A DNA stretch of 64,000 bases from a virus, in IMG/VR virus record IMGVR_UViG_3300047558_000077, positions 1 to 64,000 of that record. One strand, written 5' to 3'. The notes below the pieces were generated by a model. It made no database searches and was not told the DNA's origin. It saw only the letters and a list, made by a program, of their open reading frames with translations. A program made the translations under genes and the position numbers. Position 1 is the stretch's first letter, and each line of letters begins with the position of its first letter. This document shows positions 39,483 through 61,930 of the stretch, one piece after another.

Positions 39483-39500
39483 GAGGAATACTAAATAGAT

Positions 39501-39558
39501 GTAGGCCACGGTGCTACCAACACCTGCCTACCCTAACGCTATGAAGGAGCGCCAGCCT
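39501..39558 (+). ncRNA. Structured leader RNA motif, copy 1 (upstream of HNH gene)
   Basis: Follows late promoter CTAAATA. Same architecture as 55989-56044, with compensatory changes. Confidence 0.65.
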
Positions 39559-40172
39559 ATGTCTATTTATCGTCGGATCTATACAGAACATTTTGGTCCA
39601 ATTCCAAAGGGTTATCATATCCATCATAAAGATGGAAATCATTCTAATAATGATCCTTTGAATCTTGTTGCCATTGCGGCAAAAGAGCATTATGATATAC
39701 ATTTTAGTCAAGGAGACTATGGTGCCTGTTGGGCAATGTATCGCACAGGTCATATGACACTAACAAGTGAGGAACGATCCGCACTAGTTAGTAAGCAACA
39801 AAAGATGTTGTTAGAATCAAACAAACATCCTTTTCAAGATCAAAAAATCGTGAAAAGAACAGGCAGATTCATTTGGATAAAATATCTAAAAGAACACACC
39901 ATCTTCAATCAGGATCTATTCAAAGAATACAAAACGCCAAGAGGATTCTTGAAGGAACACACAACTTATTAGGTGAAAACAATCCGATTCACGAAAGAGT
40001 TGAAAAAGGTTTACACCAAGAGATGATGAAGAATGAGAATAAAAAACGATTGGCAAATGGGACACATAACTTTACCATGAAATGGATATGTCCAATATGC
40101 GGTAAAAGTGGAACCAACCAAACAAACTATAGTAGATGGCATGGTGATAGATGTAGGGAGAATATAAAATGA
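39559..40172 (+). pseudogene. HNH homing endonuclease split by a single frameshift near 39841-39847
   Basis: YRRIY..HFGPIPKGYHIHHKDGNHSNNDPLNL HNH motif. Reading continues in the -1 frame as KNREKNRQIHLDK...GTHNL...CPICGK...RWHGDRC. Confidence 0.75.
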
Positions 40173-40765
40173 TTATTGGTTTGGTAGGATTTATTGGTGC
40201 AGGTAAAGGTACGGTAGCAGATATTTTAGTAAGAGAACATGAATATCATAAGTTTAGTTTTGCTGATGCTCTAAAGGATGCCGTTGCCACAATCTTCACA
40301 TGGCCACGAGGTCTTCTAGAGGGTGACTCAAACGCTTCTAGAGCATTTCGTGAGCGTGTTGATCCGTGGTGGTCACATAAACTCGGCTATGAGGTTACTC
40401 CACGGCTCATTCTACAAAAGATGGGTACCGAAGCATGTCGGCACGGAATCGCAGATAACATCTGGATTGCCGCATTAGAGAAACGCATTCATGGATATGA
40501 TGATGTGGTTATCTCCGATGTTCGTTTTCCAAACGAAATCGATTTTGTTCGGAGTGCCGGTGGTATCATAGTTCAGGTCAATAGAGGTAATGCACCCACA
40601 AAAGAAGAACTATCCAAAATGCATATATCGGAGACAGCATGGAACTATGTTGTGCCAGATTACATCATAGATAATGATGGTTCATTACAGGAACTGAAAG
40701 ATAAGATAAAAATAGTCTTGACAGTAGAACAAAAACCTACTACAATATTTCATCATCCGGTATGA
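40169..40765 (+). CDS. gp1: Deoxynucleoside monophosphate kinase gp1
   Basis: IIGLVGFIGAGKGT, SFADALKD, TPRLILQKMGTE, ISDVRFPNE, HISE. Confidence 0.92.
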   Translation: MIIGLVGFIGAGKGTVADILVREHEYHKFSFADALKDAVATIFTWPRGLLEGDSNASRAFRERVDPWWSHKLGYEVTPRLILQKMGTEACRHGIADNIWIAALEKRIHGYDDVVISDVRFPNEIDFVRSAGGIIVQVNRGNAPTKEELSKMHISETAWNYVVPDYIIDNDGSLQELKDKIKIVLTVEQKPTTIFHHPV

Positions 40766-40778
40766 TAAGGAGAATATA

Positions 40779-41432
40779 ATGAAGCTAAGTGAGAATACAC
40801 TATCCGTCCTAAAGAACTTTGCCACGATCAATAGTGGTGTTGTTTTAAATGCAGGCAAGATTCAAAAAACAATCTCACCTGAGAAGTCTATTCTAGTTGA
40901 AGCAACACTTGATGATGACATTCCAACACCATTTGGAATTTACGATCTAAATCGGTTCTTGGGCAATCTAACAACACTAAAGAATCCTGAATTGACCTTT
41001 AATAATGAATCCGTTACTCTAGATGATGGAGAGTTTTCATTCGATTATCATGCTTGTTCTGCTAATCTTATTATCACTCCTCCAAATAAGGATATTATGT
41101 TGCAAACGATTGATGTTACATTCTCTCTTCCTAATGTGATTCTACAGAAGCTACTTAAAGTTGCCACCATGAACGGTCTACCTAATCTCTCTGTTGTAGG
41201 TAAAAATGGTGAGTTGCTACTTCGTATTCACGAAAAGGCAAACGATACATCTAACAGTGGAACTATGAAGATTGGTGAGTATGCGGGTCAGGACTTCACT
41301 GCTACATTCAACACAGAGAATCTAAAGCTATTGTCTGATGACTACACCGTAGAAATCCAGAAAGGTGCTTTTGCGAAGTTTGTGAATGCCGCCGGCAATC
41401 TAAAGTATTTCGTTGCTCTGGAGACAAAGTAA
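40779..41432 (+). CDS. gp45: Sliding clamp gp45
   Basis: MKLSENTL.VLKNFATIN, FGIYDLNRFL, ENLKLL..DY.V and YFVALE motifs. Promoter TTGACA-17-TACAAT at 40718-40746. Confidence 0.95.
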   Translation: MKLSENTLSVLKNFATINSGVVLNAGKIQKTISPEKSILVEATLDDDIPTPFGIYDLNRFLGNLTTLKNPELTFNNESVTLDDGEFSFDYHACSANLIITPPNKDIMLQTIDVTFSLPNVILQKLLKVATMNGLPNLSVVGKNGELLLRIHEKANDTSNSGTMKIGEYAGQDFTATFNTENLKLLSDDYTVEIQKGAFAKFVNAAGNLKYFVALETK

Positions 41433-41601
41433 TGTCCATGTTTTCTAGAATATATTTTGGCGGAATATTTCTACTATTCTTATCACTAGGATTGATTGCA
41501 TATCAAGACTATACAGAGAATAGAAAGTGTGAAGATGCTGGTGGCATCTATGGTGGCCACGACATGTGTGTGAATCCGGCAGCAATCATTGAGGTAGACT
41601 A

Positions 41602-41898
41602 ATGAGTATGATGGGACATAATCAGCAACAGCGTTCGGTTCAGGGACTAACCGAAGAAGAACGCAAGGTCTTTCGCAAGGCTATTATGGAGTTGAATGAC
41701 TCCATGACTCGTGTTGGTGCCGAGCGAGAACTACAGAAAGAGACTATCAATGAACTAAGTGATAAACTGGATATTGATAAGAAACTCATTCGCCGTATGG
41801 CACGCACATACTTCAAGGCAAACTTCAACTCTGAGGTTCAGGAGAACACAGACTTTGAAGAGTTTTACACCACTGTGATGGAGAAGACACAACTATGA
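41602..41898 (+). CDS. Phage dsDNA-binding protein (T4 DsbA-like)
   Basis: SMTRVGAERELQKE.......IDKKLIRRMARTYFK.NF..E......FEEFY pattern. Confidence 0.7.
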   Translation: MSMMGHNQQQRSVQGLTEEERKVFRKAIMELNDSMTRVGAERELQKETINELSDKLDIDKKLIRRMARTYFKANFNSEVQENTDFEEFYTTVMEKTQL

Positions 41899-42049
41899 TG
41901 GCGCTTATCTTTGAGTTGCTAAGTGTAGTAAACTTTATAACTGCATCCTACTATTGGATTATGGATCACGATGATATCAATCGCTGGTTGTTTCTTCTTC
42001 TAACATCTATTATAATGCAACTTAGCGCATCTCGTTATGAGGAAAATGA

Positions 42050-42988
42050 ATGAGCAATGACTTCCTTTGGGTAGAAAAGTATCGTCCTCACAAGATCGAG
42101 GACTGTGTTCTTCCTGATCGTATCAAACAGGCATTTCAAGAATATGTGAATAAGGGGGAGATTCCAAATCTCCTTCTTTCTGGGCCCGCTGGTTGTGGTA
42201 AAACTACCGCAGCCATGGCTATGTGTGATGAAATCGGTTGTAACTATCTTTTCATCAACTCCTCAGAAGAAAGAGGCATTGATGTTCTAAGAACAAAGGT
42301 CGTAGGTTATGCGTCGACCGTATCGCTTACTGGTGGTCGTAAGGTTATCATTCTAGACGAAGCCGACGGCCTGACACCAGATACGCAAGATGCTCTTAGA
42401 GGTGTTATTGAGAAGTTTGCTTCCAACTGTTCTTTCATCTTCACATGTAACTTCAAGGCAAAGATCAAAGACGCTATTCATTCTAGATGCTCCGTCGTTG
42501 ACTTTACCTTGAAGTCTACTGAAAAGCCTGCTATGGCTGCTAAGATGTTCAAGCGTATTGAACAGATTCTAAAAATCGAGAGTGTAGATTATGACAAACA
42601 AGTTCTTGCCAAAGTTGTCGAAAAGTATTTCCCAGACTATCGTAGGACTCTTAATGAACTACAACGGTATTCTGTTGCTGGAAGCATTGATGCTGGTCTT
42701 GCTGCTCAACTTGACAGCGTTCGCAGCCTTAACGATCTAATCAAGTCTCTCAAAGATAAAGACTTTACGGCTATGCGTAAGTGGGTGGTTCTAAACTCTG
42801 ACATTGATCCTTCACGCATTTATCGTTCGGTGTATGATAATCTAAATCAGTATCTAAAGCCAGAGTCCATTCCCGCTGCGGTTGTAACGCTTGCTAAGTA
42901 TCAGTATCAGTCCGCCTTTGTTGCTGATCAGGAACTAAACTTGGTTGCTTGTCTGACGGAAATCATGGTTGAGTGTGAGGTGAAGTAA
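42050..42988 (+). CDS. gp44: Clamp loader large subunit gp44
   Basis: LWVEKYRP, GPAGCGKTT, IILDEAD, HSRC, FPDYRR.LNELQ. Confidence 0.96.
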   Translation: MSNDFLWVEKYRPHKIEDCVLPDRIKQAFQEYVNKGEIPNLLLSGPAGCGKTTAAMAMCDEIGCNYLFINSSEERGIDVLRTKVVGYASTVSLTGGRKVIILDEADGLTPDTQDALRGVIEKFASNCSFIFTCNFKAKIKDAIHSRCSVVDFTLKSTEKPAMAAKMFKRIEQILKIESVDYDKQVLAKVVEKYFPDYRRTLNELQRYSVAGSIDAGLAAQLDSVRSLNDLIKSLKDKDFTAMRKWVVLNSDIDPSRIYRSVYDNLNQYLKPESIPAAVVTLAKYQYQSAFVADQELNLVACLTEIMVECEVK

Positions 42989-43479
42989 TGGCTAAAATGG
43001 ATTGGAGTAAAGCGAATCATTCAAATAGTTTAGAATTGGGTTCTAAATCATCTTTTGAGGCTAGAAAAGCGAAAGAACTCAAACAAATTGTAGATTTACA
43101 AGAAGAGAATGTGGGAAAATATAAGAAGTCTTATGTTCAAGAAACATTCGATAATAGTCCTTTTCAGACAACCGAAGAATTTGAAAAGTCAATAGTAAAA
43201 TCCATAAAAGAAGAACAAGAAAAAGAACTCAATGGATCAAAAATCAATGGACATGTAAAGTTAACTGGAGGTAAGTATAGACATTTCAACTATGATGATG
43301 TTTGGAATGCCGATCCTGATTACATCCTTTGGTTATTCTGGAATACACCACATGACTTTATTAGACAACAGATATTGAGGTCTGTGCCTATTACTGAAAA
43401 TGTTGGTATGTATTTCAAGAAGATCGAGATGCCTACCGTAAAGAAACTTGCCGTTCAACCTACATGGTGGCAATATTGA
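42988..43479 (+). CDS. Hypothetical protein inserted between gp44 and gp62
   Basis: Carries a GKYR......V...DPDYILWL small module; overlaps both neighbours. Confidence 0.55.
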   Translation: MAKMDWSKANHSNSLELGSKSSFEARKAKELKQIVDLQEENVGKYKKSYVQETFDNSPFQTTEEFEKSIVKSIKEEQEKELNGSKINGHVKLTGGKYRHFNYDDVWNADPDYILWLFWNTPHDFIRQQILRSVPITENVGMYFKKIEMPTVKKLAVQPTWWQY

Positions 43480-43892
43480 CTGATCTATTCAAAGATGTCA
43501 TTCCATCCATTCTACAGACTAAGAAGAATGTTCTGGAGAATGAAAAAGACTATAGTGCTTTCGTGGTGAATCGGGCCCTCTCGTTTCACTACGATTGCGT
43601 TTTACAAGTCAATGAGATGAACCAGTATCCAGGTTTGCCTGCTAATATGCAATATCACTATTTGCTAAATAGCATTAGAGGCTATAAACGCCCTTTTAGA
43701 AAATGGGAAAAGCGTGAAACCATTGAGGACTTGGAAGCCGTAAAAGAGTATTACAACTACTCTAACGAAAAGGCCAAAGAAGCATTGGTTTTGCTAAACG
43801 CTACCCAGTTAGAACAAATAAGAAAAGAACTAAACAAAGGTGGCATAAATGACAGCAAACCTAGAAGACTTCGTGGAAGTAAGACTTCCTGA
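43476..43892 (+). CDS. gp62: Clamp loader small subunit gp62 (probable TTG start)
   Basis: YSAFVVNRALS, MQYHYLLNSI, VKEYYNYSNEKAKEAL. Confidence 0.9.
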   Translation: MTDLFKDVIPSILQTKKNVLENEKDYSAFVVNRALSFHYDCVLQVNEMNQYPGLPANMQYHYLLNSIRGYKRPFRKWEKRETIEDLEAVKEYYNYSNEKAKEALVLLNATQLEQIRKELNKGGINDSKPRRLRGSKTS

Positions 43893-44262
43893 TCCTCAAG
43901 CCTTCTTGAAAGTGAAGGAGACTTTGACTCGTATTGGTGTAGCATCTAAGAAAGATAAAACTCTCTATCAGTCATGTCATATATTACATAAGCAGGGTCA
44001 TTATTACTTGGTACACTTCAAAGAGATGTTTATGTTGGACGGTAAGCCAACAGACTTCTCCGAAGAAGATCGTGGCAGAAGAAACACGATTGCTAATCTA
44101 TTAGCAGAATGGGGTCTAGTCACGCTAGTCGATAAAACTAAATCACAAGAGCCACTAACACCTCTAAACCGCATCAAGATAATCTCTTATGGTGAGAAAG
44201 GTGAGTGGAATCTAGTCGCCAAGTATTCTCTTGGTAAGAAAAGATTTTCAGATACAGAATAG
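43849..44262 (+). CDS. regA: Translational repressor RegA
   Basis: FLKVKETLTRIGVAS, LYQSCHILHKQG.YYLVHFKE, RRNTIA.LL.EWGL. Confidence 0.97.
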   Translation: MTANLEDFVEVRLPDPQAFLKVKETLTRIGVASKKDKTLYQSCHILHKQGHYYLVHFKEMFMLDGKPTDFSEEDRGRRNTIANLLAEWGLVTLVDKTKSQEPLTPLNRIKIISYGEKGEWNLVAKYSLGKKRFSDTE

Positions 44263-44276
44263 AAAGTGAGTTTGTT

Positions 44277-44885
44277 ATGACTACATTGAAGATTTGGAAA
44301 ACACATCCCGATATTCAAATACCAAAGCACCAGACCACACAGTCTGCTTGCTTTGATCTAGCTTTTCAAGGTGCCGGCAAAAGAGAGTATAAAGGCTATT
44401 CGCATATGAATAAGCCTTTCTCTCGCCTACTTTCAGGATCTATCACAATCGCTCCTGGTGATCGTGTTCTAATTCCAACTGGTTGCATCATGGATATTCC
44501 AGAAGGATATTCGGTTCGTCTTCATGCTCGTTCTGGAACATCTCTAAAGCAGGGACTTGTTCTAGCTAATGCGGAAGGTGTCATTGATTCTGACTATGTT
44601 GAAGAAGTGTTTATCATGCTATGGAACATTTCTGGTAACGCTGTTACGATTAACAACGGTGATCGTATTGCACAGGCAGAACTTGTGAAGAATGAGGAAT
44701 ACACAATTGAGCAAACACCAGCCCGTCCTTTGCCCAGAACTAATCGCACAGGCGGATTTGGTTCTACAGGAATCACATCAAAAGATGATATGATTCTAAT
44801 AAATATACCACAAACTTTGGTTGTCGAGAAAGTTGAGGAACCTGTCGTGAAGCGTGGTAGAGGAAGACCGAGGAAGAATGCCTAA
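44277..44885 (+). CDS. dut: Trimeric dUTPase with C-terminal AT-hook
   Basis: SACFDL, RSG, GVIDSDY, GDRIAQ and RTGGFGSTG motifs; tail KRGRGRPRK. Confidence 0.92.
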   Translation: MTTLKIWKTHPDIQIPKHQTTQSACFDLAFQGAGKREYKGYSHMNKPFSRLLSGSITIAPGDRVLIPTGCIMDIPEGYSVRLHARSGTSLKQGLVLANAEGVIDSDYVEEVFIMLWNISGNAVTINNGDRIAQAELVKNEEYTIEQTPARPLPRTNRTGGFGSTGITSKDDMILINIPQTLVVEKVEEPVVKRGRGRPRKNA

Positions 44886-45420
44886 AGCACATAGAATTGG
44901 TGATCAAAGAATGTGCGGCGCTACTACCACAAGCGCCGGATTGAACACCAACGTCTTTGTCAATGGTATGTTAGCCGCTGTTGCCGGTGACCGTAACGAT
45001 CATAATAATCTAGGTGCATTGATATCATCATCACCTGGTACCATATTGATTAATGGTGTTCCTATGATCGCATCTATCATGGATAATTCCTCACCAGATC
45101 AGATTGGATTAATCACACACGTTACAGGACTTCCTACACCAGCAACAGGTTCACCAAACGTAAATCTATATGGAGGTTCCGGATCGTTTGCGGGTGGACT
45201 AGGTTCATTTGGCGTATCCGGACTTCCTAATGTGGGCGAGCTTTTATCATTTGCTGGTAATATTGTAGGTCAAGTATATCGAACTGCAAATCAAGGAAGC
45301 AACTCTGGTATGCTGGCGATGAACAACATAACATCAAACACACAACCAACCACAGGATCTACAGTTACAGGAGTCACAACAGGGAGAACATTCACGTTTT
45401 CCTCATATTATACATCTTGA
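44878..45420 (+). CDS. PAAR-domain spike-tip protein with C-terminal extension
   Basis: MPKAHRIGDQRMCGA, NVFVNG..AAV.GD..DH, TILING.P, TGSPNV. Confidence 0.75.
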   Translation: MPKAHRIGDQRMCGATTTSAGLNTNVFVNGMLAAVAGDRNDHNNLGALISSSPGTILINGVPMIASIMDNSSPDQIGLITHVTGLPTPATGSPNVNLYGGSGSFAGGLGSFGVSGLPNVGELLSFAGNIVGQVYRTANQGSNSGMLAMNNITSNTQPTTGSTVTGVTTGRTFTFSSYYTS

Positions 45421-45451
45421 CAACAGTATAGAGTTTACTATATAATATAAC

Positions 45452-45504
45452 AATGATAGCCGAAAGGTATCATTCCTTATAATCTCGCTGAAAAGGAGAA
45501 ACAC
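45452..45504 (+). promoter_or_regulatory. ROSE-like RNA thermometer in the hsp20 leader
   Basis: 5' hairpin AATGATA..GAAA..TATCATT, then UCUCGCU-GAAA-AGGAGA with a bulged G opposite the SD. Confidence 0.7.
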
Positions 45505-46044
45505 ATGACAAACTATAAGTTTAACACAGAAAACTTCGCATTTCCTTCCGCTCTAGCCAGACAATTCATTGGCTTCGATTCGGTACTTGAAAATTTCAAT
45601 CGAGCTACCGAGCAATTGACCAAAGCTACTAATTATCCTCCATACAATATCAAGAAAATTGACGAAGAACATTTTGTAATCGAAATGGCAGTTGCTGGTT
45701 TCGGTAAGCAGAATCTTGATATTGAATTAAAGGACGGCGAACTGACCATTACTGGTAGACATGACGCCGACGAAAGTGACTACATCTACCAAGGCATTGC
45801 TAACAGGGCTTTCACCCGTAAGTTTACTCTTGCCGATACAGTGGTTGTAAAGAATGCCGAATTGGTCAACGGCCTATTGAAGATCGCTCTTGAACGTTAT
45901 ATTCCGGAAGAGAAGAAAGCGAAGAAGATCGACATTCTAGATCCATTCGGTGTTGGTGAAACGACAAGGCAATTTCTCACCGAGAGCGGCAAAGTTTGGG
46001 CCGAAGGCCTACAGAAAGTCGCAGAAACTATGACGCCTAAATAA
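45505..46044 (+). CDS. Small heat shock protein Hsp20 (IbpA-like)
   Basis: FIGFD, NYPPYNI, IEMAVAGF, GIANRAFTRKFTLAD, NGLLKIALE. Confidence 0.95.
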   Translation: MTNYKFNTENFAFPSALARQFIGFDSVLENFNRATEQLTKATNYPPYNIKKIDEEHFVIEMAVAGFGKQNLDIELKDGELTITGRHDADESDYIYQGIANRAFTRKFTLADTVVVKNAELVNGLLKIALERYIPEEKKAKKIDILDPFGVGETTRQFLTESGKVWAEGLQKVAETMTPK

Positions 46045-46118
46045 GACTGACATGGCCGAGGCCTCTGCCGCAAGGTACGCCTCGGTCCTCTTTATATGAT
46101 GTTACTATGGAGCATGTG

Positions 46119-46415
46119 ATGAAAAAACTCATTCTATTATTCTGTCTTATTCCATCTATCTCACTAGCCGAAGGCTTCGAATGTAGCAAACATGACGGTA
46201 ATGTTGTGTGTAAGGCTAAAGAAAATGGTGTTGCGGTAAACTCTATTTCAATTAATGGTGGTGAATGTGCTTCTCCTTATGATGCTAAGATATATCATAA
46301 GGTAATGAAAAAGGGCGACAAGTTCACCGTTCCTGGTTCTAAAGATTGTTTCTATGTTAGATCGGTGCATATAAATACGCACGACGGTGAAACACATCGC
46401 CATAATGCCATGTGA
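46119..46415 (+). CDS. Secreted small protein with 4 Cys in the mature part and a His-rich C-terminus
   Basis: Signal peptide MKKLILLFCLIPSISLA/E; tail HINTHDGETHRH. Confidence 0.55.
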   Translation: MKKLILLFCLIPSISLAEGFECSKHDGNVVCKAKENGVAVNSISINGGECASPYDAKIYHKVMKKGDKFTVPGSKDCFYVRSVHINTHDGETHRHNAM

Positions 46416-46422
46416 GGATAGT

Positions 46423-47163
46423 ATGAAACTAGTGATTGAAAAACCCGTTACAGTTATCACACCTACAATCGGTTCCCCAAAACTTATTGACGCTATTGAG
46501 TCTGTAAAGAATCAGACTTACAAGTGCAATCATTTGATTGTCGTTGACGGTTCTGAGCATCTATCAGATGCTAGGTCTATATTCCATCGTGATACCAACT
46601 ATGTCGTTTCTCCAGAGAACACAGGAAAGACAGGTGGCAACTTCTATGGTCATCGTATCTATGCTGCTTATCCACATCTAATCAATTCAGATTACATTCT
46701 GTTCCTTGACGAGGACAACTGGTATGAACCAGATCATGTTGCCTCACTAATCGAAACAATCGAGAAGAAAAATCTAGATTTCTCCTATTCGCTTCGAAAG
46801 ATTTTCTCACCTGATAAGAAGTATCTTTGCGATGATAATTGTGAAAGTCTTGGTAAGTGGCCGATCTTTATGTCTCGCAGTTCTCCACATGGTCCTCAGT
46901 TTCTAATCGACACATCTTCCTTCTGCTTCAAGCGAGAGTTTATTCAAAAGACTTGTCATTTCTGGCATTCTGGATGGGGTGGCGATAGACGATTTTTATA
47001 CTCGGTAAAAGATAATGCTAACTACGATACAAACGGTAAGCATACTCTCTGCTATCGTCTAGATGGTAATCCCAATTCAGTAACACGAGAATTTTTTGAA
47101 CAAGGTAACAAGACACAAGAAGCATATTATGGAGGAGCGAAATATCCATGGCTAAGGACTTGA
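46423..47163 (+). CDS. Glycosyltransferase family 2
   Basis: VTVITPT, AIESVKNQT, LIVVDG, FLDEDNW, WGGD. Confidence 0.85.
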   Translation: MKLVIEKPVTVITPTIGSPKLIDAIESVKNQTYKCNHLIVVDGSEHLSDARSIFHRDTNYVVSPENTGKTGGNFYGHRIYAAYPHLINSDYILFLDEDNWYEPDHVASLIETIEKKNLDFSYSLRKIFSPDKKYLCDDNCESLGKWPIFMSRSSPHGPQFLIDTSSFCFKREFIQKTCHFWHSGWGGDRRFLYSVKDNANYDTNGKHTLCYRLDGNPNSVTREFFEQGNKTQEAYYGGAKYPWLRT

Positions 47164-48047
47164 TTATAGGTGGAGCGGCAGGTTACAATTGGGATCAATT
47201 GAAATACTGGGTGAACTCCATCAACAAAACAGGATTTAAAGGTGATATTGTTCTAGTAGCAACAGACATGTCAGGTGAAACCGTAAAGAAGCTGGTAGAG
47301 AACAATGTAAAAGTATATGCATATGGTAAGCGTAATGAAAGTGGCGGAATAGAAAAGAGTGCAAACGGTATTCCGCCGCATGTTGAACGATTCATTTTCA
47401 TTTGGGATTATCTACGTAAGAACAAAGACGACTATCGATTTGTAGTTGTCACGGATACGAGAGACGTTATCTTTCAGAAAGATCCAACAGAATATCTGGA
47501 ACAAAATTTATTGTTTGGAGCAGCCTCTATCGTATGTGCGTCAGAAGGACTAGCATACAAAGATGAACCATGGGGCAGTAAGAACTTACTTGACACATTT
47601 GGTCCATTAGTATACGATGAACTTAAAGATAACTTGATATACAATGTAGGCACAATCGCTGGTTTTTACGAAGAAGTGAGAGACCTTATATTGCAGATAT
47701 TCTTTCAGTCAGTCAATCGTCCTATTCCTATTGTTGATCAGGCTGTGTTCAACTTTATCATTAGCATGAGCACATACAATCTAGAAGTGTTGAGAACAAA
47801 CAATCAGTCTGCATGGGCTGTTCAATTAGGCACAACACTAGAAGCGGTCAAGGCAGGTGCCGGTGATATTGGACAGATTGTCAGACAAGATCCATCTAAA
47901 CTTGAAGAATATATAAAAGCGTATCAAGATAAACAGCCTACAATTGATAATGAACTTGTGATGGCTGATCATGTTCCTTTTACAATCGTTCACCAGTGGG
48001 ATCGTGTTCCTGCTATCAAAGAATTGGTAATGAAAAACTATGCATAA
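47148..48047 (+). CDS. Glycosyltransferase-like protein
   Basis: ERF, TDTRDVIFQ.DP, NVGTIAG, DQAVFN, IVHQWDR. Confidence 0.7.
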   Translation: MAKDLIIGGAAGYNWDQLKYWVNSINKTGFKGDIVLVATDMSGETVKKLVENNVKVYAYGKRNESGGIEKSANGIPPHVERFIFIWDYLRKNKDDYRFVVVTDTRDVIFQKDPTEYLEQNLLFGAASIVCASEGLAYKDEPWGSKNLLDTFGPLVYDELKDNLIYNVGTIAGFYEEVRDLILQIFFQSVNRPIPIVDQAVFNFIISMSTYNLEVLRTNNQSAWAVQLGTTLEAVKAGAGDIGQIVRQDPSKLEEYIKAYQDKQPTIDNELVMADHVPFTIVHQWDRVPAIKELVMKNYA

Positions 48048-48894: not shown

Positions 48895-49619
48895 ATAAAG
48901 CTCTAATCATTACTCCCACAGGTCGTTCAATCTATCACCACGAAGATTATGACAAAGACAATCACTGGCGCTTTACAAAGCCAGAGAGAACATATGAAAC
49001 ATGTGTGGTGGTCTATAATGACTTTCAGCCAGAGCCAGGAACATATGACTATATCATTCGTCGTAAAGGTCTAAAGTGGAATCTCGTTCCTGAGGTTTCT
49101 AAGATTATCAACTGGCAGGACTACGACTACATTGGTGTGTGGGATGATGACTATGCTACAGATATTCAATCTATCAATAAGGCTCTTGCATATGCTCGGC
49201 GCTATGACTTTAGATTGTTTCAACAAGCAACAACCTCATTTCAAACTTACGATTGTCTAAAGCACAATCCAGAGTTTGCTTTCACGGAAACAAACTTTAT
49301 TGAGTTAGGTGTTCCATTCTTTCGTAATGATATCTATCGCAAAGTTCTTCGCTTTCTTGAGGACTACCGTTATGAGAAGTCTGATTGGGGAATTGATAAA
49401 GTTCTTTGTTACTATCTACAGGCATCGGCTCATGTTGTCCATGATACAACAGTTAGACACATGCTTCCAGATGAAAGCACCTATAATAAAGAAGATGGCT
49501 TTAGAGAAATGGAATATCTAATGCGTGACTTCTTTCCCAAGTATATGAAAGAGAACTTTGGATTAGAATATCAGTATACAGATGTTCAACAAGTGATAAG
49601 GGCTTATAAACATGGATAA
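48891..49619 (+). CDS. DUF707-like glycosyltransferase
   Basis: YDYIGVWDDD, TNFIELGVPFF, WGID. Confidence 0.6.
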   Translation: MNKALIITPTGRSIYHHEDYDKDNHWRFTKPERTYETCVVVYNDFQPEPGTYDYIIRRKGLKWNLVPEVSKIINWQDYDYIGVWDDDYATDIQSINKALAYARRYDFRLFQQATTSFQTYDCLKHNPEFAFTETNFIELGVPFFRNDIYRKVLRFLEDYRYEKSDWGIDKVLCYYLQASAHVVHDTTVRHMLPDESTYNKEDGFREMEYLMRDFFPKYMKENFGLEYQYTDVQQVIRAYKHG

Positions 49620-50412
49620 TATGACAAGATACATCAACTGGATGGAAGTATCAGATCAGTTTAGAAAAAGTCTTCCTTTCAATCACGTTATCATTGATGA
49701 CTTTTTTCTACCGCATATTGCAGAACAGTTAGCTAACGAGTTTCCTGATTATAATGATCCGGCTCTTGGCTATTACAATAATGCCATCGAGAACAAGAAG
49801 GTCTTTAACAAGTGGGATAAGTTTCCGAAGTTAACATATCAGGCATTTACTATGCTTGGTCGTCCTAATTTTTTGTTTCATATTAGAGGTCTTATCGGCA
49901 ATCCTAACAACACCGAACTATGGATGGACTATGGATTGAATGGTGGTGGTTGGCACATGCACACCAAAGGCGGTAAGAACAATGTGCATCTTGACTACAA
50001 CATTCATCCTAAGTTAGGTGAACAACGCAAACTAAACATCATCGTATACATGACTCCTAACTGGAAGTCGGAATGGGAAGGTGGTCTAGAACTATGGTCA
50101 CATGATAATGTAACTCGTAGGCCAAAGGATCTGGTTAAGACAGTTGAAAACAAATTCAATCGTGCTGTTATTTTCGATACTACACAGAATAGCTGGCATG
50201 GATTGCCTAAAGAACTAAAGTGTCCTGATGGTGTTGTTCGTAAGTCTCTTGCTGCTTATTACGTTCAACCTGCACCAGAAGGTGCTGATCCTCGTGGCAA
50301 GGCTCTATTTGCTCCTACAAAGGAACAAGAAGGTAATCCAGAAATCGAACAACTTATCCGTGAACGCTCGAATGTGGCAACTGCCGATAAGTTCCATGCA
50401 GGTGACAAGTAA
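49612..50412 (+). CDS. 2OG-Fe(II) oxygenase
   Basis: PFNHVIIDDF, GGGWH, HLD, WEGGLELW, FNRAVIF...SWHG, RKSLA.YY. Confidence 0.85.
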   Translation: MDNMTRYINWMEVSDQFRKSLPFNHVIIDDFFLPHIAEQLANEFPDYNDPALGYYNNAIENKKVFNKWDKFPKLTYQAFTMLGRPNFLFHIRGLIGNPNNTELWMDYGLNGGGWHMHTKGGKNNVHLDYNIHPKLGEQRKLNIIVYMTPNWKSEWEGGLELWSHDNVTRRPKDLVKTVENKFNRAVIFDTTQNSWHGLPKELKCPDGVVRKSLAAYYVQPAPEGADPRGKALFAPTKEQEGNPEIEQLIRERSNVATADKFHAGDK

Positions 50413-51122
50413 TGGAAGAAATAGATGTAGTATTCTTTATCAATAGTGCTATGAATGTCACTGGTCGTTCCCTCTACTCTAACGATGTTAGATGGGAACA
50501 GACACAGGAAACGATTTTATCTATTGACAAACAGGTACCAAATAATATAAAATACTTAATTGATGGTTCATTCCTACCAATTGAGGAATACAAACTTAAT
50601 TGGTTGAAAGACCATAATGTTCGTGTAGCTCTAACTGGTCATATTCCAGGTATTACAGAGATATCAAAGAACATCGCACAGTATGGTATTGGTAATAGTA
50701 TTGCAGAGACTCGTTCAATGTTCATGTTTGTGGATCACTTTCTACAGTCTGAATATGGAAACATCAAAGCAAAGCGTATATGTAAGTTATCTGGTAGGTA
50801 CAAGATAAATGAAAACTTCAAGTGGGATGATCCTAACTTTGAAAATAAGTATGTCTTCGTGAAGCATCATGCGTCAAATAGTCCTGTGAAAGAACAACTT
50901 GGTCTAACTGGATTGTTTGTCGTGCGTTGCTGGCATATGGATTATGCTCTACTACATAACTACAGAGAAGTCATTCTTAGCATCGCTAACGATTGTGCCA
51001 ATCTCGGTATCGATGCAGAGAACTCTTATTATAAAAACATTCCTAAAGATTTACTTTATGAAGTGGAAAAGATTGGCGTAGAAGGTTATGTCTCACCCGT
51101 GGGAGTCTATGAAAATGAGTAA
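50412..51122 (+). CDS. Hypothetical glycan-cluster protein
   Basis: R.EQT..TI.SI and KLSGRY motifs, often seen in phage glycan loci. Confidence 0.5.
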   Translation: MEEIDVVFFINSAMNVTGRSLYSNDVRWEQTQETILSIDKQVPNNIKYLIDGSFLPIEEYKLNWLKDHNVRVALTGHIPGITEISKNIAQYGIGNSIAETRSMFMFVDHFLQSEYGNIKAKRICKLSGRYKINENFKWDDPNFENKYVFVKHHASNSPVKEQLGLTGLFVVRCWHMDYALLHNYREVILSIANDCANLGIDAENSYYKNIPKDLLYEVEKIGVEGYVSPVGVYENE

Positions 51123-52161
51123 AACACTATTGATTACAGGTGGTGCTGGGTTTATCGGTCACCACGTTATTGACTTGTTCCTACAGAAAACTGATTGGAA
51201 CATTGTCTCACTAGATCGCCTAGATTACTCTGGCAATCTAAATCGTCTTGATGATGTTGTGCGGCGCTATCCTGTGGAAACTCGTAAGCGTGTCAAGGTT
51301 GTATATGGTGATCTTCGTGCAGAAGTCACAGCATTACAGCAAAACTTTATTGGTGATGTTGATTACATACTTCACATGGCTGCGTCGTCACACGTTGACC
51401 GCTCTATTGAAGATCCAATGTCATTCGTTATGGACAATGTTGTTGGTACAGTCAACATTCTAAACTTTGCCCGCAAGTGTAAGAACCTCAAGCGGTTCAT
51501 CTATTTCAGCACAGATGAAGTTTTCGGTCCTGCACCAGGTACTATTACATATGGCGAGCGTGATCGCTATAACTCAACTAATCCTTATTCAGCATCTAAG
51601 GCGGCTGGTGAAGAAATGTGTGTTTCCTTCGAGAACACATACAAGCTACCTATCTTCATTACACATACAATGAACGTCTTTGGACAGCGACAGCATCCAG
51701 AGAAGTATATTCCTATGTGTATTCGTAAAGTTCGTAATGAAGAGACTGTTACTATTCATTCCGATCCTTCTAAGACTACACCTGGTTCACGCTTCTATAT
51801 TCATGCCGCTGACGTTGCTGATGCCATGTATTTTCTATTGCATCTAACACCAGAGCAAGAAGCAAAAGTTCATGAGCCTGATTATGGTGGTGCCAAGTGT
51901 CCAAAGTTCAATGTAGTTGGTAAAGAAGAAATCAACAATCTTGAACTTGCAGAGTATATTGCACAAGCAGAAGGTAAGATTCTAAACTTTGAAATGGTTG
52001 ACTTCCATTCTTCACGTCCAGGTCATGATCTTCGATATGGTCTATCGGGTGAGTATATGAAGTCTCTTGGTTGGGAACCAAAGTATACTCTTCGTGATCG
52101 TATCAAGGAAGTAGTTGATTGGTCGCTTGCTAACCCAGAATGGATCGAGGTGACAGAATGA
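51115..52161 (+). CDS. dTDP-glucose 4,6-dehydratase (RmlB-like)
   Basis: TGGAGFIG, HMAASSHVDRSI, STDEVFG, PYSASK, RPGHDLRY. Confidence 0.9.
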   Translation: MSKTLLITGGAGFIGHHVIDLFLQKTDWNIVSLDRLDYSGNLNRLDDVVRRYPVETRKRVKVVYGDLRAEVTALQQNFIGDVDYILHMAASSHVDRSIEDPMSFVMDNVVGTVNILNFARKCKNLKRFIYFSTDEVFGPAPGTITYGERDRYNSTNPYSASKAAGEEMCVSFENTYKLPIFITHTMNVFGQRQHPEKYIPMCIRKVRNEETVTIHSDPSKTTPGSRFYIHAADVADAMYFLLHLTPEQEAKVHEPDYGGAKCPKFNVVGKEEINNLELAEYIAQAEGKILNFEMVDFHSSRPGHDLRYGLSGEYMKSLGWEPKYTLRDRIKEVVDWSLANPEWIEVTE

Positions 52162-52724
52162 GTGTAACATATAACTTTTACGAGCCACTGAAAGACCCAC
52201 AATGGATATCAGGAAAAGATATTCTTCCTCTACTAGCAGACTTTAAGAATCCTGTTGGTATTGAAATTGGTGTTGATGAGGCACCAACAAGTTGGTTCTT
52301 TCTAAAGAATAGACCAGACCTGAAACTATTCGGTGTTGATCCGTTTCAGGCATATCAAGATTGGTATCCTGAAGGTTATATCAGTCAGCGTCAACAGGAT
52401 GAAAAGTATGAGAACATGCGTCGTCGTACCGCAGAGTTTGGTGATCGATGGAAACATTATCGTTTAACTTCTGATGATGCTGTTCCTCTATTTACAGATG
52501 ATTCATTCGACTTTATCTTTATTGACGGTCTGCATGAGTATGAACAGGTCCTAAAGGACTGTAAGAACTATTGGCCTAAGATCAAGAAGGGTGGTGTATT
52601 CGCAGGGCATGACTATCGTGTTATTGAAGGTGTCGGTCGTGCTGTTGATGAATTTGCTGCTACAGTAGGCGCAACGCCTATTCATCTACCAGAACAAGAT
52701 GCTTGGTACTGGATAAAGGAGTAA
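52158..52724 (+). CDS. Class I SAM methyltransferase (Methyltransf_24-like)
   Basis: GIEIGV, FDFIFIDGLHEYE.V..D, GGVFAGHDY, GV.RAVDEF. Confidence 0.85.
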   Translation: MSVTYNFYEPLKDPQWISGKDILPLLADFKNPVGIEIGVDEAPTSWFFLKNRPDLKLFGVDPFQAYQDWYPEGYISQRQQDEKYENMRRRTAEFGDRWKHYRLTSDDAVPLFTDDSFDFIFIDGLHEYEQVLKDCKNYWPKIKKGGVFAGHDYRVIEGVGRAVDEFAATVGATPIHLPEQDAWYWIKE

Positions 52725-52727
52725 ACT

Positions 52728-53948
52728 ATGGATTGGGAATGTCGTCCGATTACAGAATGTATTGCATGTGGTTCAAGCGATTTGGTTCCTGTGTTGGATC
52801 TCAATTCTCAACCATTAGCAAACTCATATAAGAAAGATAAACTAGAACAACAACCAGAGTATCCTCTAGCAATCAATCGCTGTAAACATTGTTATCATGT
52901 TCAACTAACGCATCAAGTAAATCCAAAACTAATGTTCACGGATTATGCTTATGTGTCAGGTACAGCTAAAACGTCGCTAGACTATTTTGATTGGCTAGTT
53001 GATCAAATAGTAAGAAAATACGGCTCTACACCAGAGTCAGTTCTAGATATCGGATGCAATGACGGTAGCTTTCTAAACGCATGGGGTGGCACGGGCACCG
53101 TTACGTTTGGTGTTGATCCTGCTGAAAACTTGCATCCGATATCTTCTAAACATCATCGTGTTCATTGTGGCTTCTTTACAGGTAAAGAGTTTGGTGACAA
53201 AAGATTTGACGTTATTACATGTCTAAATGCATTCGCTCACAACGCAGATCAGTTATCATTACTAAAGAATGTGGCGACACGTATGCATGAAGATACGTTA
53301 TTGTTTTGTTCCGTGTCTCAGGCTAATATGATATTAAATGGTGAGTTTGATACAATCTATCATGAGCACCTATCATTCTATAACATCAAATCTGCAAGAG
53401 CCTTGTGTAAACGAGCAGGGCTAAATTTGATTGATGTTATCAAGCACAGCATTCATGGTGATAGTTATATCTTTGTTATCTCGAAAGTGAAAGAAGCAAA
53501 AGTCTATATCGAGTCATTGATTCTAGAAGAAGAGAAGATGGGTCTTTATGATCCTGAAACCTATGATGAGTATGCTGAAAAGTGTTATTTCATTGCGGAT
53601 AAGTTTGCAGAAACGATCAGAGGTTATCGTGCATTAGGTGTCACTGTTATTGGTTACGGTGCTCCTGCCAAGGGCAATACACTAATGAACTTTGCTAATG
53701 AAGGTCCAGACTTTATTGTTGATGATAATCCTTTAAAGCAACTCACATTTACTCCTGGTATGTCTGTGCCAATCTATTCACCTTCATACATGACGCTAAA
53801 CTATTTTGAAACGAAACGTGTTTGCTTTGTTCCGCTTGCTTGGAACTTCTATGATGAAATTGTTGCTAACATAAGAAAGATTAGACCAGCACATACACAT
53901 AAGGATATCTTCGTGCGTTACTTCCCAAAGTTTGAAATCAATGAATAG
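52728..53948 (+). CDS. NDP-hexose C-methyltransferase
   Basis: Zn site CIACGS...C.HC.HVQL, DIGCNDG, FDTIYHEHLSF, GYGAPAKGNTL, PLAWNF. Confidence 0.88.
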   Translation: MDWECRPITECIACGSSDLVPVLDLNSQPLANSYKKDKLEQQPEYPLAINRCKHCYHVQLTHQVNPKLMFTDYAYVSGTAKTSLDYFDWLVDQIVRKYGSTPESVLDIGCNDGSFLNAWGGTGTVTFGVDPAENLHPISSKHHRVHCGFFTGKEFGDKRFDVITCLNAFAHNADQLSLLKNVATRMHEDTLLFCSVSQANMILNGEFDTIYHEHLSFYNIKSARALCKRAGLNLIDVIKHSIHGDSYIFVISKVKEAKVYIESLILEEEKMGLYDPETYDEYAEKCYFIADKFAETIRGYRALGVTVIGYGAPAKGNTLMNFANEGPDFIVDDNPLKQLTFTPGMSVPIYSPSYMTLNYFETKRVCFVPLAWNFYDEIVANIRKIRPAHTHKDIFVRYFPKFEINE

Positions 53949-54726
53949 AGTTGCCTACTATCACATTCATCTAACAGATGATCCTCTAATCTGGACTTCT
54001 ATCTTTCTTGAACAAATGAAATGTATAGAGGATTCTGGATTGATTCAGAATCTAAATAAGATGCGAGTTACTTGCATTGCACAGGATGATGACCGCATCC
54101 AGATGTTTGTTCGTCTATGCGAATCCTATAACATTCCTATGGAACTAACAGCGATCAAGAACCCATTTGACAATGATCGTGACATGCTCTATAATAGAAA
54201 CACTAATAAGTCATGCACGGAAGACATTACGTTAAAGCGTATATGGGAAGATTGTAAAAAGGAAGATATGAAAGTTCTTTACTTTCATTCTAAAGGTTCT
54301 ACATCATATTCCACTAATGTCAATGTCAATAACATCGTCAAACATAAGGAATACTTTTACTGGCGTTCCTTTATGAATTGGGCTGTGTTGGAGCAATGGG
54401 CTTTTTGTGAGAACGCATTGGATAGATATGATATTGCTGGTGGTGACTATCATGAATTACCTTCCCCACATTTTTGCGGTAACTTCTGGTGGGCAACTTC
54501 GGATCATATCAAGCAATTGCCAGACCCACTAGATAAAGCATGGTGGCATGAATTACAAAAGAGGACAGATGATGCTTGGATCAAACAAGCACCAGTTAGA
54601 ATGTATGATGAAATGTGGATCGGTGCTAGAGAAGGTATCAAAGTATATAACGTGATTGATCTAAAGGGTAAGAACCCAGTCAATCAATGTTTATCTGAAT
54701 TAGACTGTGAGAGGCTTATGCAATGA
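53941..54726 (+). CDS. Hypothetical glycan-cluster protein
   Basis: LYFHSKG, WR.FM, HFCGNFWWA and EMWIG motifs. Confidence 0.55.
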   Translation: MNRVAYYHIHLTDDPLIWTSIFLEQMKCIEDSGLIQNLNKMRVTCIAQDDDRIQMFVRLCESYNIPMELTAIKNPFDNDRDMLYNRNTNKSCTEDITLKRIWEDCKKEDMKVLYFHSKGSTSYSTNVNVNNIVKHKEYFYWRSFMNWAVLEQWAFCENALDRYDIAGGDYHELPSPHFCGNFWWATSDHIKQLPDPLDKAWWHELQKRTDDAWIKQAPVRMYDEMWIGAREGIKVYNVIDLKGKNPVNQCLSELDCERLMQ

Positions 54727-55964
54727 AAGTAACAGTGATTGGTGCGGGAGGTCATGTTGGTCTTCCGTTTTCTCTTGTGGTAGCAGATGCGGGACATATC
54801 GTATATGGTGTTGACCTGAATGAAGAACTTATTCTAGCACTGAATAGTGGTATTGTGCCTTATATTGAACATGGCGCAGAAGAACTACTAGTAAAGCACA
54901 CATCAGAAGGTAACATCGTTTTCACTACCAACGCATCTATGATAAATGAATCAGATGTTGTTGCCATCATGCTTGGCACACCTGTTGACGAAGAGAACAA
55001 TCCACGACTAGATGATTTGTTTGACTTTGTTGATCATACTCTTATGCCTAATATGAAGAAAGATACGTTGGTGCTGTTAAGGTCAACAGTATCACCAGGC
55101 ACAACAGAAATACTTCGTGATCGTATTGAATCGATAACTGGATGGATAGAAGGTAAAGATTTTTATCTGGTGTTTGTTCCTGAAAGAGTTCTACAGACAA
55201 AAGGTATTGAAGAGACAGCAAATCTACCAGCATTGATTGGAGCATTTGGAGATAACTCATATTATAAGGCTAGAGAGTTTCTAGGAACATTCATCAAGGC
55301 ACCTATGTTTCTTCTAACACCAAGAGAAGCGGAGATCGGTAAACTTATGACGAATATGTTTCGTTATGTTACCTTTGCTCTTGCTAATGAGTTTTGGATG
55401 ATTGGAGAAAAGCAAGGTGTGGATATGCACCGTGTCATCCAAGCAGCAAATTATGGTTATGAAAGAAATGCTATTCCTCTACCAGGTCCTAATGTCGGCG
55501 GTCCATGTCTATTCAAAGATGGTAGATTTCTTCTATCAGACATACCGTTTGCTGATCTTATTCAGACCTCGTTCCATATCAATGAAGGTATGCCAGACTA
55601 CATCTTCAATCGCATCAAGGAGATGAATCCTAAGGTAAGATGTGTTTTGATTCTTGGTGCGACCTTCAAGAAGGACTGTGACGATACACGAAACAGTCTA
55701 TCATTCAAAATGAAGAAGGTATGTAAGAAGAATGGTGCCGAGGTGTATATGTGGGATGACTATATTCCGTGGCCAAAGGACAAGGATTTTCCATACAGAG
55801 AACATTTTGATGCTGTTATTGTAATGACACCTCATACAGGCACAGAAGCAAAGTGGCCGCTAAATGATTTCAATGATGATTGTATCATCGCAGATATCTG
55901 GAAGATGTATCCAGAAAGTAAACTAAGTAAGTCAGGCATTTATAGAGTTGGAGATATGTTGTAA
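54723..55964 (+). CDS. Nucleotide-sugar dehydrogenase (UDP-Glc/GDP-Man/UDP-ManNAc DH family)
   Basis: GAGGHVGLP, RSTVSPGTT, PERV, AEIGKL..N, GGPCLFKD, LGATFK..CDD.RNS. Confidence 0.9.
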   Translation: MKVTVIGAGGHVGLPFSLVVADAGHIVYGVDLNEELILALNSGIVPYIEHGAEELLVKHTSEGNIVFTTNASMINESDVVAIMLGTPVDEENNPRLDDLFDFVDHTLMPNMKKDTLVLLRSTVSPGTTEILRDRIESITGWIEGKDFYLVFVPERVLQTKGIEETANLPALIGAFGDNSYYKAREFLGTFIKAPMFLLTPREAEIGKLMTNMFRYVTFALANEFWMIGEKQGVDMHRVIQAANYGYERNAIPLPGPNVGGPCLFKDGRFLLSDIPFADLIQTSFHINEGMPDYIFNRIKEMNPKVRCVLILGATFKKDCDDTRNSLSFKMKKVCKKNGAEVYMWDDYIPWPKDKDFPYREHFDAVIVMTPHTGTEAKWPLNDFNDDCIIADIWKMYPESKLSKSGIYRVGDML

Positions 55965-55988
55965 GGATCGGATTTACTAAATAGTATT

Positions 55989-56044
55989 GTCCGTCACGGA
56001 GTTGGCGCTCCCACGGACTCTAATACTGTTTAGGAGTATCAGCA
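55989..56044 (+). ncRNA. Structured leader RNA motif, copy 2 (upstream of GIY-YIG gene)
   Basis: Follows late promoter CTAAATA (55977-55983). Covaries with 39501-39558. Confidence 0.65.
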
Positions 56045-56668
56045 ATGTTCTATATTTATGCCTATCTCAGGCAAGACAACACACCATATTATATCGGTAA
56101 AGGAAAAGGTCGTAGGGCTTGGACTAAGTATAAGGGAGAAGTGTATCCTCCTAAAGACAAAACTCGTGTGGTCATTATGGAAGATAATCTAACAGAACTT
56201 GGCGCTTTGGCTTTAGAAAGAAGATATATTCGTTGGTATGGACGTAAAGATAATGGCACAGGTATATTGAGAAATATGACAGATGGTGGTGACGGAACAA
56301 CAGGTATCATCAGAGACGAGGAATGGAGTAGAAAGCAAAGAGAGTCACAACCTAAAAAATTTGGTTTAGATAATCCATTCTATAACAAGCAGCACAATGT
56401 AGAAACAAAAAAGATAATGAGTATCAAAAAACAGGGTGAAAATCATCCTATGTTTGGAAAGAAACAAAGTAATACTACAATAGAAAGAAAAGTAAAGAAA
56501 CTATCAAAGAAGTGGATGATAACATTTCCAGATGGTCATAGTGAGATTATAAAGAACATAAAAGAGTTTTGTAGAGATAAAGATTTTGGTCCGAGCCAAC
56601 TATATAATGTCGCTTATGGAAATCAAAAATCTTGTCACGGATATAAATGTCAGAAAATGGAGAACTGA
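56045..56668 (+). mobile_element. Free-standing GIY-YIG homing endonuclease with NUMOD3-like repeats
   Basis: FYIYAY...YYIGKG...[26 protein letters not shown] and HPMFGKKQS repeats. Confidence 0.88.
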
Positions 56669-61850: not shown

Positions 61851-61930
61851 AGTAGTCAATGGTGACTACTAAATAAAAGACCGGGCATCCTATCCCGGAG
61901 ACCGGTCAATCACAAAATAGGAGTGAATAT
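61851..61930 (+). promoter_or_regulatory. pmoC regulatory region: palindrome, late promoter, structured leader and SD
   Basis: AGTAGTCA-ATGG-TGACTACT abuts CTAAATA. GACCGG/CCGGTC and CCGGG/CCCGG helices; AGGAG SD. Confidence 0.6.

Follow-up and report, generated by a model that had tools for sequence, protein, structure and literature searches.

In a stretch of 64,000 nucleotides (nt) of viral DNA (positions 1 to 64,000 of the IMG/VR record IMGVR_UViG_3300047558_000077; hereafter, the window), two unrelated homing endonuclease genes, one of the HNH type and the other of the GIY-YIG type, are each preceded by a copy of the same short structured element. This element belongs to a family of portable cassettes of about 85 bases that head unrelated nuclease genes in uncultured freshwater T4-like phages. 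We show that the element is real, portable and unnamed, and that it probably is an antisense RNA cassette rather than a riboswitch-like leader. Specifically, we assign a probability of about 0.6 to the interpretation under which convergent late promoters flank a two-hairpin cis-antisense RNA of approximately 65-75 nt that covers the Shine-Dalgarno sequence of the nuclease gene, similarly to the RNA-OUT of IS10. Few mobile genes are as common in large phages as homing endonucleases and, to our knowledge, the tolerance of dozens of such DNA-cutting passengers is understood only in the case of a handful of T4 genes that each possess an individual hairpin. Here, one homologous control cassette recurs in front of more than a hundred genes, which represent at least four nuclease families, and the fold of this cassette suggests an antisense RNA.

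Both copies of the element are present at the positions given in Table 1, and both read, as an earlier note on this DNA had claimed, in the order CTAAATA, element, ATG, with CTAAATA located 3-5 nt upstream of each element; the nuclease assignments made in that note were likewise confirmed by Pfam-type matches (HNH_3 and GIY-YIG/NUMOD3, respectively). A descriptor of the shared architecture, with three helices denoted P1, P2 and P3, identifies only two sites in the 64-kilobase (kb) window, namely the two copies, and none in 100 shuffles. The virus record comprises 172,364 base pairs (bp) with a G+C content of 40.8% and encompasses T4-type genes including the one for the gp45 sliding clamp. A covariance model built from 5 copies (R1), the seed of which contains no wobble pairs, recovers only these two copies from the 172-kb genome, and neither the descriptor scan nor R1 detected a third copy there, the next match scoring 8.8 bits (E=6).

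The first IMG/VR scan, with an exact pattern, yielded true homologs in three contig pairs, the helix sequences of which are all different. A second pattern, confined to the 3' half of the element and leaving P1 and P2 unconstrained, matches at least 120 IMG/VR loci; 80 of these were analysed, and essentially all of the 80 contain a full-length R1 match. The 36 R1 matches in the first locus set and the 96 in the 80 further loci amount to at least 113 distinct instances. A single phage contig carries 2-6 copies, and related contigs carry Gp23 capsid genes. In most of the 13 IMG/VR homologs closest to the HNH protein of the window, R1 places a copy directly 5' of the start codon; the more distant HNH homologs (L040-L106) have no cassette, which indicates that the cassette is not a general feature of HNH genes.

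The family does not correspond to any named one in Rfam, as had been surmised: a search of the 64-kb window against Rfam 15 gave no matches at the gathering thresholds, and with E values up to 10, both loci on both strands produced only chance-level matches (HOTAIR_2 with E=2.1 and CRISPR-DR51 with E=9). Megablast and blastn searches with the region and with the element against 50,697 deposited phage records produced no match; hence, no carrier of the cassette is known from culture. A search of 185,579 prokaryote genomes (GTDB) matched only three short contigs of metagenome-assembled genomes from lakes (L246, L247, which is from Lake Mendota, and L248), labelled Bacteroidetes and Luteolibacter; most likely, these are misbinned phage contigs, which provide no evidence for the identity of the host. 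The main text of a 2023 catalogue of more than 10,000 viral RNA candidates (PMC10690425) is silent on homing endonuclease motifs, and the family might be listed in that catalogue without a name.

The compensatory changes in the three helices that the earlier note had read from the two window copies are real and family-wide: across 89 distinct rows of the alignment, 94.5% of the pair cells are canonical and each of the 13 pairs varies at both of its positions; such values are attained in 0 of 500 shuffles, and no slid register comes near. Pairing in P1/P2 amounts to 98%, and all four types of Watson-Crick pairs occur. An RNAalifold prediction for the antisense alignment of 61 diverse members encompasses 19 pairs and joins CUG(R) with UUAG; on the gene strand, this is CUAA paired with YCAG, which lengthens the third helix. 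The last base of the linker and the Y opposite it are, in the sense reading, A-U in 68 instances, A.C in 34, U-A in 4 and G-C in 3, with no G.U. Similarly, the middle base of the CRC bulge in the internal loop of P1/P2 pairs with the single base opposite to it (sense: G-C 54, A.C 32, A-U 24, G.U 0; antisense, in the 61-sequence alignment: G-C 27, G.U 17, A-U 17); in copy 1, A39508 pairs with U39525. Thus, the conserved blocks that had originally been taken for single strands are predicted to be engaged in the fold, YCUAA and YCAGC through pairing with each other, including the covarying linker:Y pair, and CAC through its middle base, and the element, by this prediction, is two hairpins rather than three helices with conserved single strands. 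Read antisense, the extended third hairpin has 8 bp in copy 1 (GGCUGG... ...UUAGG), with a loop that opens with CCU, and the antisense minimum-free-energy fold of copy 2 contains an uninterrupted 8-bp helix, CUGAUACU/AGUAUUAG; the P1/P2 hairpin of copy 1 is predicted to be the 3' hairpin of the antisense RNA.

A pseudoknot between the P2 loop and YCAGC, which had also been considered, found no support in the aligned rows that we inspected: the complementarity is not kept consistently across members, and YCAGC pairs with YCUAA instead. With regard to the loops, the family alignment (A6) contains some P2 loops that are mutually reverse complementary between members (CGCCAA/UUGGCG and UCCCCA/UGGGGA), and the conserved ends of P1 and P2 are palindromic (GU...AC), which suggests that the hairpin can invert or that loop identity matters on both transcripts. 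The P2 loops of the two window copies (CUACCAA and UUGGCG) could form a 4-base pairing with each other. In copy 1 only, the 5' arm of P1, GUAGGC, has an alternative partner, GCCUAUG, across the start codon (39498-39570).

A strand-specific pattern of wobbles is a standard signature for placing a structured RNA on a strand, and in this family, the pattern points to the strand opposite the nuclease gene as the one on which the conserved fold is selected. Over the 19 pairs, canonical cells comprise 98.7% in the antisense reading versus 88.1% in the sense reading, and antisense-only wobbles number 131 versus 10 sense-only ones, with clean shuffle and slide controls. Within P1 and P2, the sense strand shows a single G.U versus 12 A.C/C.A, the latter in differing helix contexts; the outer pair of P3 is, in sense, C.A in 45 instances, U-A in 34 and C-G in 20, with no U.G; three pairs that each exist in three states contribute 111 A.C/C.A cells and 0 G.U on the sense strand, with each state found in 18-51 of the 87 clusters; and one further pair is an invariant A.C in sense (G.U in antisense). 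The asymmetry was not imposed by the search model because the R1 seed contained no wobble pairs. The minimum free energy is lower for the antisense strand in 112 of the 113 instances (-18.5 versus -13.8 kcal/mol), and the composition-controlled z scores are -2.10 and -1.25 for the antisense and sense strands, respectively. With the selected fold apparently on the opposite strand, the most likely product would be a cis-antisense RNA of approximately 65-75 nt. What stands of the original proposal is a genuine covarying element at the RNA level, whereas its action as a structure of the mRNA leader is unsupported.

The flanks of the element are compatible with transcription of both strands. On the upstream side, TAAATA precedes P1 in 106 of the 113 instances, with a modal gap of 5 nt, and in 96 of the 113 the distance is 3-5 nt, a late promoter feature shared with the homing endonuclease genes of T-even phages. 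On the downstream side, the nine bases that follow the ATG are mostly NNT ATT TAT (T 97, A 83, T 88, T 87, T 82, A 87 and T 88 of 106), so that codons 2-4 comprise the reverse complement of the late promoter ATAAATA. In 92 of the 113 instances, which represent different nuclease families, the sequence TATTTA is found between the ATG and +15, read in either of two frames (MxIY or MYL): it is kept as an added MxIY prefix (e.g., MSIYPTG-FYIYAY in GIY-YIG proteins), and about a dozen genes employ the second frame, ATG TAT TTA (MYL...). The isoleucine codon 3 is ATT in 62 of 68 cases, compared to 38% elsewhere in the same genes. Judging from this conservation, the TATTTA motif is under selection at the nucleotide level. 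Genome-wide, TAAATA occurs more often than expected on the coding strand (85 sites versus ~64 expected) and 2.3-fold less often than expected on the other strand (25 versus ~58). There are only 11 minus-strand (A/C)TAAATA sites in the genome, of which two are the candidate antisense promoters of the window copies; the other nine are at 6318, 13943, 14940, 104085, 104115, 118822, 121455, 134501 and 135409.

The spacing TAAATA-N5-G is modal on both sides, to G1 of P1 in the forward direction (57 of 92) and to the G of GCUG in the antisense direction (59 of 92). T4 late promoters span positions -13 to -6, and phage Aeh1 uses CTAAATA (PMC1524935). The observed spacing agrees with this geometry, and therefore both conserved G would be transcription starts, which would be the reason why YCAGC and the first base of P1 are conserved. 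The cassette genes, by their layout, carry a candidate outward-facing promoter inside their 5' end, as is the case for IS10 RNA-OUT. The distal hairpin of the antisense strand has a mean energy of -10.5 kcal/mol and is followed by 12 nt with a mean of 6.4 U, which is the complement of the forward promoter.

Based on these features, we propose a tentative model of the cassette. Along the gene strand, the order would be (A/C)TAAATA, 5 nt and G; P1/P2; P3 with GGAG and the CUAA:YCAG extension; AUG; and codons 2-4 that double as the inverted late promoter. The two convergent late promoters, about 75 bp apart, would produce the nuclease mRNA and the antisense RNA, respectively. Transcribed from the promoter in codons 2-4, the latter would begin with the G of GCUG, which complements YCAGC, would form an 8-bp hairpin with a loop starting with CCU (an anti-Shine-Dalgarno sequence) and an 11-bp bulged hairpin, and would end in the U-rich complement of the forward promoter. 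Such an RNA would be perfectly complementary to the whole 5' untranslated region (5' UTR) of the late nuclease mRNA, the Shine-Dalgarno sequence included, and the duplex would either block ribosome binding or be marked for cleavage, keeping the DNA-cutting selfish gene at a low dose. The helices of the mRNA, weakened by A.C mismatches, would keep the message open to translation whenever the antisense RNA is lacking or in the minority. The firing of the antisense promoter, the ends of the RNA and the repression are all inferred here from the sequence. We additionally considered, as a rather unlikely extension of this scheme, that the cassette might be a self-contained, exchangeable dose-control unit in which the facing late promoters, combined with a variable specificity code, would enable sensing of copy number or co-infection in a lytic virus. 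The code would consist of the three central pairs of P1, P2 and both loops, all of which vary freely, and the antisense RNA would be cognate to the mRNA of its own nuclease or of identical copies in co-infecting phages, by analogy with the multicopy inhibition of IS10.

Several observations weigh against the antisense RNA model. In the window copies, the antisense promoter lies 7 and 9 nt from GCUG, compared to the modal 5 nt, and the exact TATTTA is absent in 21 of the 113 instances. The sequence at the presumed 3' end of the antisense RNA is U-rich, terminator-like but not canonical, and a simple consensus terminator scan of both copies called no antisense terminator. The alignment that yielded the 19-pair structure is the antisense one, and this favours antisense for the pairs that were added there. 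In addition, the sequences are related, so that the counts overstate the number of independent events, though the key states occur in 18-51 clusters each. Finally, the inverted pair TAAATA/TATTTA could instead form a helix in read-through mRNA.

Such a helix is central to the strongest alternative, which we consider possible and clearly less probable than an antisense RNA, namely gating of the T4 type. Here, in RNA that reads through from upstream, the copy of the promoter would pair with codons 2-4 or with the loop side of P3, closing a three-way junction and hiding the start region, whereas transcripts from the late promoter would lack that arm and hence would be translated. This mechanism is established for I-TevI, I-TevII, I-TevIII, segB and mobE (PMC2988022). 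In the present family, the TAAATA...TATTTA inverted repeat brackets the element in 92 of the 113 instances; the read-through fold of copy 1 has a predicted 15-bp helix between the promoter with the 5' arm of P1 and GCCUAUGUCUAUUUA; the start region is predicted to be 1% unpaired in read-through versus 38% in the late transcript in copy 1, and 47% versus 76% in copy 2; and there is a weak association between the base that follows TAAATA and the second position of codon 2 (G together with C in 21 of 35 cases, compared with 26 of 71 for the remainder). Given the complementarity of the promoter to codons 2-4 and the promoter pairing predicted for read-through RNA of both copies, the assertion of the earlier note that the T4 hairpin mechanism does not apply was premature. 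The helices P1, P2 and P3 are all downstream of the predicted late start, whereas the additional pairing of the promoter with codons 2-4 may form in read-through RNA and is predicted to be strong in copy 1, moderate in copy 2 and weak on average. Nevertheless, the conserved part of this additional helix comprises only 6-7 A-U pairs, and as a mean of 25 members, the start region is predicted to open to nearly the same extent (0.49 versus 0.58). Gating also leaves unexplained both the wobbles of the antisense strand and the spacing of TATTTA, which mirrors the distance from the promoter to the start. We surmise that gating may be secondary, possibly coexisting with the antisense RNA.

Improbable, in our estimation, is a sense-strand role as an mRNA leader, be it riboswitch-like, ribozyme-like, protein-binding, or a 5'-terminal stabilising hairpin combined with a Shine-Dalgarno hairpin. 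What speaks for a leader is that the element is always upstream of the nuclease gene and co-oriented with it, with fixed positions of GGAG and AUG, that the late transcript would begin at the first base of P1, and that stable 5' hairpins also follow other late promoters of this phage. However, the blocks thought to be conserved as unpaired segments pair mutually, and the CRC bulge holds a covarying pair; the sense strand shows an invariant A.C together with the 111 A.C/C.A cells at three covarying pairs and no G.U; the sense folds are the weaker ones in 112 of the 113 instances; and no Rfam riboswitch or ribozyme matches, even with E values up to 10. The riboswitch-, ribozyme- or protein-binding leader suggested by the earlier note is therefore unsupported, with the conserved blocks paired and the wobbles placing the fold on the opposite strand. 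Least of all do we expect that the hairpins act as minus-strand single-stranded DNA, in which G.T is tolerated, in replication, recombination or homing: homing does involve resected single strands, and the strand-specific wobble pattern is equally compatible with DNA, but neither HNH nor GIY-YIG homing is known to involve such hairpins at the DNA level, a correctly spaced promoter motif is located exactly where an RNA would need one, and the element is common to nuclease families with differing DNA-binding modules.

The downstream genes show how widely the cassette is shared. In a Pfam search with 97 downstream proteins of at least 100 amino acids (aa), the detected domains were NUMOD3 (32 proteins), HNH_3 (18), HNH (14), GIY-YIG (6), HNH_5 (4) and TnsA-like (2). 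The gene upstream of copy 1 has a homolog in each of three relatives, and there this homolog adjoins gp45, the promoter, the element and the nuclease gene all being absent between the two; at the same site in the window, the upstream gene is separated from gp45 by the promoter, the element, the HNH gene, a small frame and a deoxynucleoside monophosphate (dNMP) kinase gene. The empty site in the relatives implies that the promoter and the element arrive together with the nuclease gene, and this, along with the range of cargo families, vindicates the earlier suggestion of a portable element that passes from one nuclease family to another. The nuclease domains and the presence or absence between relatives identify the cargo as free-standing homing endonuclease genes. 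Relative to the three relatives, in which the gene that adjoins gp45 is glycosyltransferase-like, positions 39483-40778 are an insertion of ~1.3 kb that consists of the cassette, the HNH gene, a 99-aa frame (39873-40172) and the dNMP kinase gene (40169-40765). No homolog of the kinase (P0005) was found in the three relatives, which indicates that the kinase gene belongs to the window-specific insertion.

Nine cassettes head decayed reading frames of 4-56 aa. These cassettes are intact and high-scoring (L010:4435-4496 on the minus strand, L147, L139, L184, L156, L187, L154, L202 and L168), and some of the short frames are recognisable truncated nuclease genes, e.g., MTIYPSNFYIYL*. It appears that the cassette either persists after the decay of its cargo or serves a separate purpose, such as that of a promoter of the next gene or of a trans-acting antisense RNA. 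One contig (L002) carries two cassette-headed nuclease genes in opposite orientations, at 3974-4529 (+) and 5907-6494 (-); of these, the HNH gene is encoded on the strand opposite to that of the major capsid gene and downstream of it, and the GIY-YIG gene is flanked by a 418-aa frame on one side and by the major capsid gene (Gp23) on the other.

Among the known systems, the closest in organization is RNA-IN/RNA-OUT of IS10/Tn10, in which RNA-OUT, a 69-nt antisense RNA, blocks ribosome binding on the transposase mRNA and can act in trans among copies (PMC5006887). Both systems combine a selfish gene, an outward-facing promoter at its 5' end (a candidate one in the present case) and a short, stably folded antisense RNA (here, a predicted one) over the initiation region, and the conserved stable fold of the antisense strand described above (98.7% canonical cells, lower energy in 112 of the 113 instances) is of the kind expected of an IS10-type transcript. 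In contrast to IS10, both promoters here would be phage late promoters, the predicted antisense RNA has two hairpins and spans the whole 5' UTR, the targets are homing endonucleases of several families, and the cassette, known from sequence alone, is common to unrelated genes. The late-promoter hairpins of T-even phages (I-TevI, I-TevII, I-TevIII, segB and the Aeh1 mobE) resemble the cassette in that a late promoter is located directly 5' of a homing endonuclease gene (PMC2988022), RNA structure surrounds the Shine-Dalgarno sequence, and the promoter is complementary to a downstream segment. However, those hairpins are gene-specific and their inhibitory arm is absent from the late transcripts, whereas the cassette is one homologous family with all three covarying helices inside the late transcript and with the selected fold apparently on the other strand.

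An antisense RNA over a homing endonuclease gene of a T4-like phage is represented by CfrI of cyanophage S-PM2, which overlaps the gene and is expressed together with the latter (Millard et al. 2010, as summarized in PMC2984593). According to this summary, CfrI is the one antisense RNA described over a nuclease gene of a T4-like phage; it is ~225 nt long, links the nuclease gene to psbA and is found at a single locus, unlike a repeated 5'-end cassette, and we found no sequence or structural relation between CfrI and the cassette. The PeSL cassettes of T4-like phages are also short modules of a promoter and a stem-loop, repeated in the genome and implicated in modular shuffling (PMC4122927; PMC2839356). 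The PeSL consist of a terminator stem-loop and an early promoter and are not tied to nuclease genes; in contrast, the cassette combines late promoter motifs on both strands with two covarying hairpins and includes the ribosome-binding site and first codons of the gene. If the antisense interpretation is correct, the cassettes are an abundant new family of phage RNAs that is missing from Rfam, they are among the very few antisense regulators known in T4-like phages, and they represent regulatory DNA that travels between unrelated selfish genes. There is also a caution here for RNA discovery: the gene context suggested the mRNA strand, and the covariation pattern suggests the other one.

Table 1. 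Positions in the window of the two cassette copies, the nuclease genes that they head and the predicted transcription features
Feature	Position	Strand	Remarks
Copy 1, forward late promoter CTAAATA	39491..39497	+	3 nt before G39501, first base of P1
Copy 1, element	39501-39558		upstream of ATG 39559
Copy 1, hairpin P1/P2	39501..39531	-	6 bp, CAC opposite U, 4 bp, 7-nt loop
Copy 1, extended third hairpin	39533..39555	-	CUAA+CGCU / AGCG+CCAG, loop AUGAAGG; Shine-Dalgarno GGAG at 39546-39549, within the hairpin
HNH homing endonuclease gene (protein P0001)	39559..39972	+	137 aa; PF13392 HNH_3, E=5e-13
Copy 1, candidate antisense late promoter ATAAATA	39564..39570	-	+ strand TATTTAT, codons 2-4 TCT ATT TAT
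Copy 1, predicted antisense RNA	39488..39558	-	ends approximate, inferred from promoter geometry, antisense fold and U-rich tail
Copy 2, forward late promoter CTAAATA	55977..55983	+	5 nt before G55989
Copy 2, element	55989-56044		upstream of ATG 56045
Copy 2, hairpin P1/P2	55989..56018	-	GUCCGU-CAC-GGAG-UUGGCG-CUCC-C-ACGGAC
Copy 2, extended third hairpin	56020..56042	-	CUAA+UACU / AGUA+UCAG; GGAG at 56033-56036
GIY-YIG-type (Seg-like) homing endonuclease gene with NUMOD3 motifs (protein P0002)	56045..56668	+	207 aa
Copy 2, candidate antisense late promoter ATAAATA	56053..56059	-	+ strand TATTTAT, codons 3-5 TAT ATT TAT
Copy 2, predicted antisense RNA	55975..56047	-	ends approximate, estimated from antisense fold, promoter spacing and U-rich tail

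Late promoters of this phage (CTAAATA or ATAAATA) often precede a stable simple hairpin within a few bases, as at 46037, 11228, 61869 and 8834. The promoter and hairpin at 61869 stand before pmoC, and such simple hairpins are not members of the cassette family.

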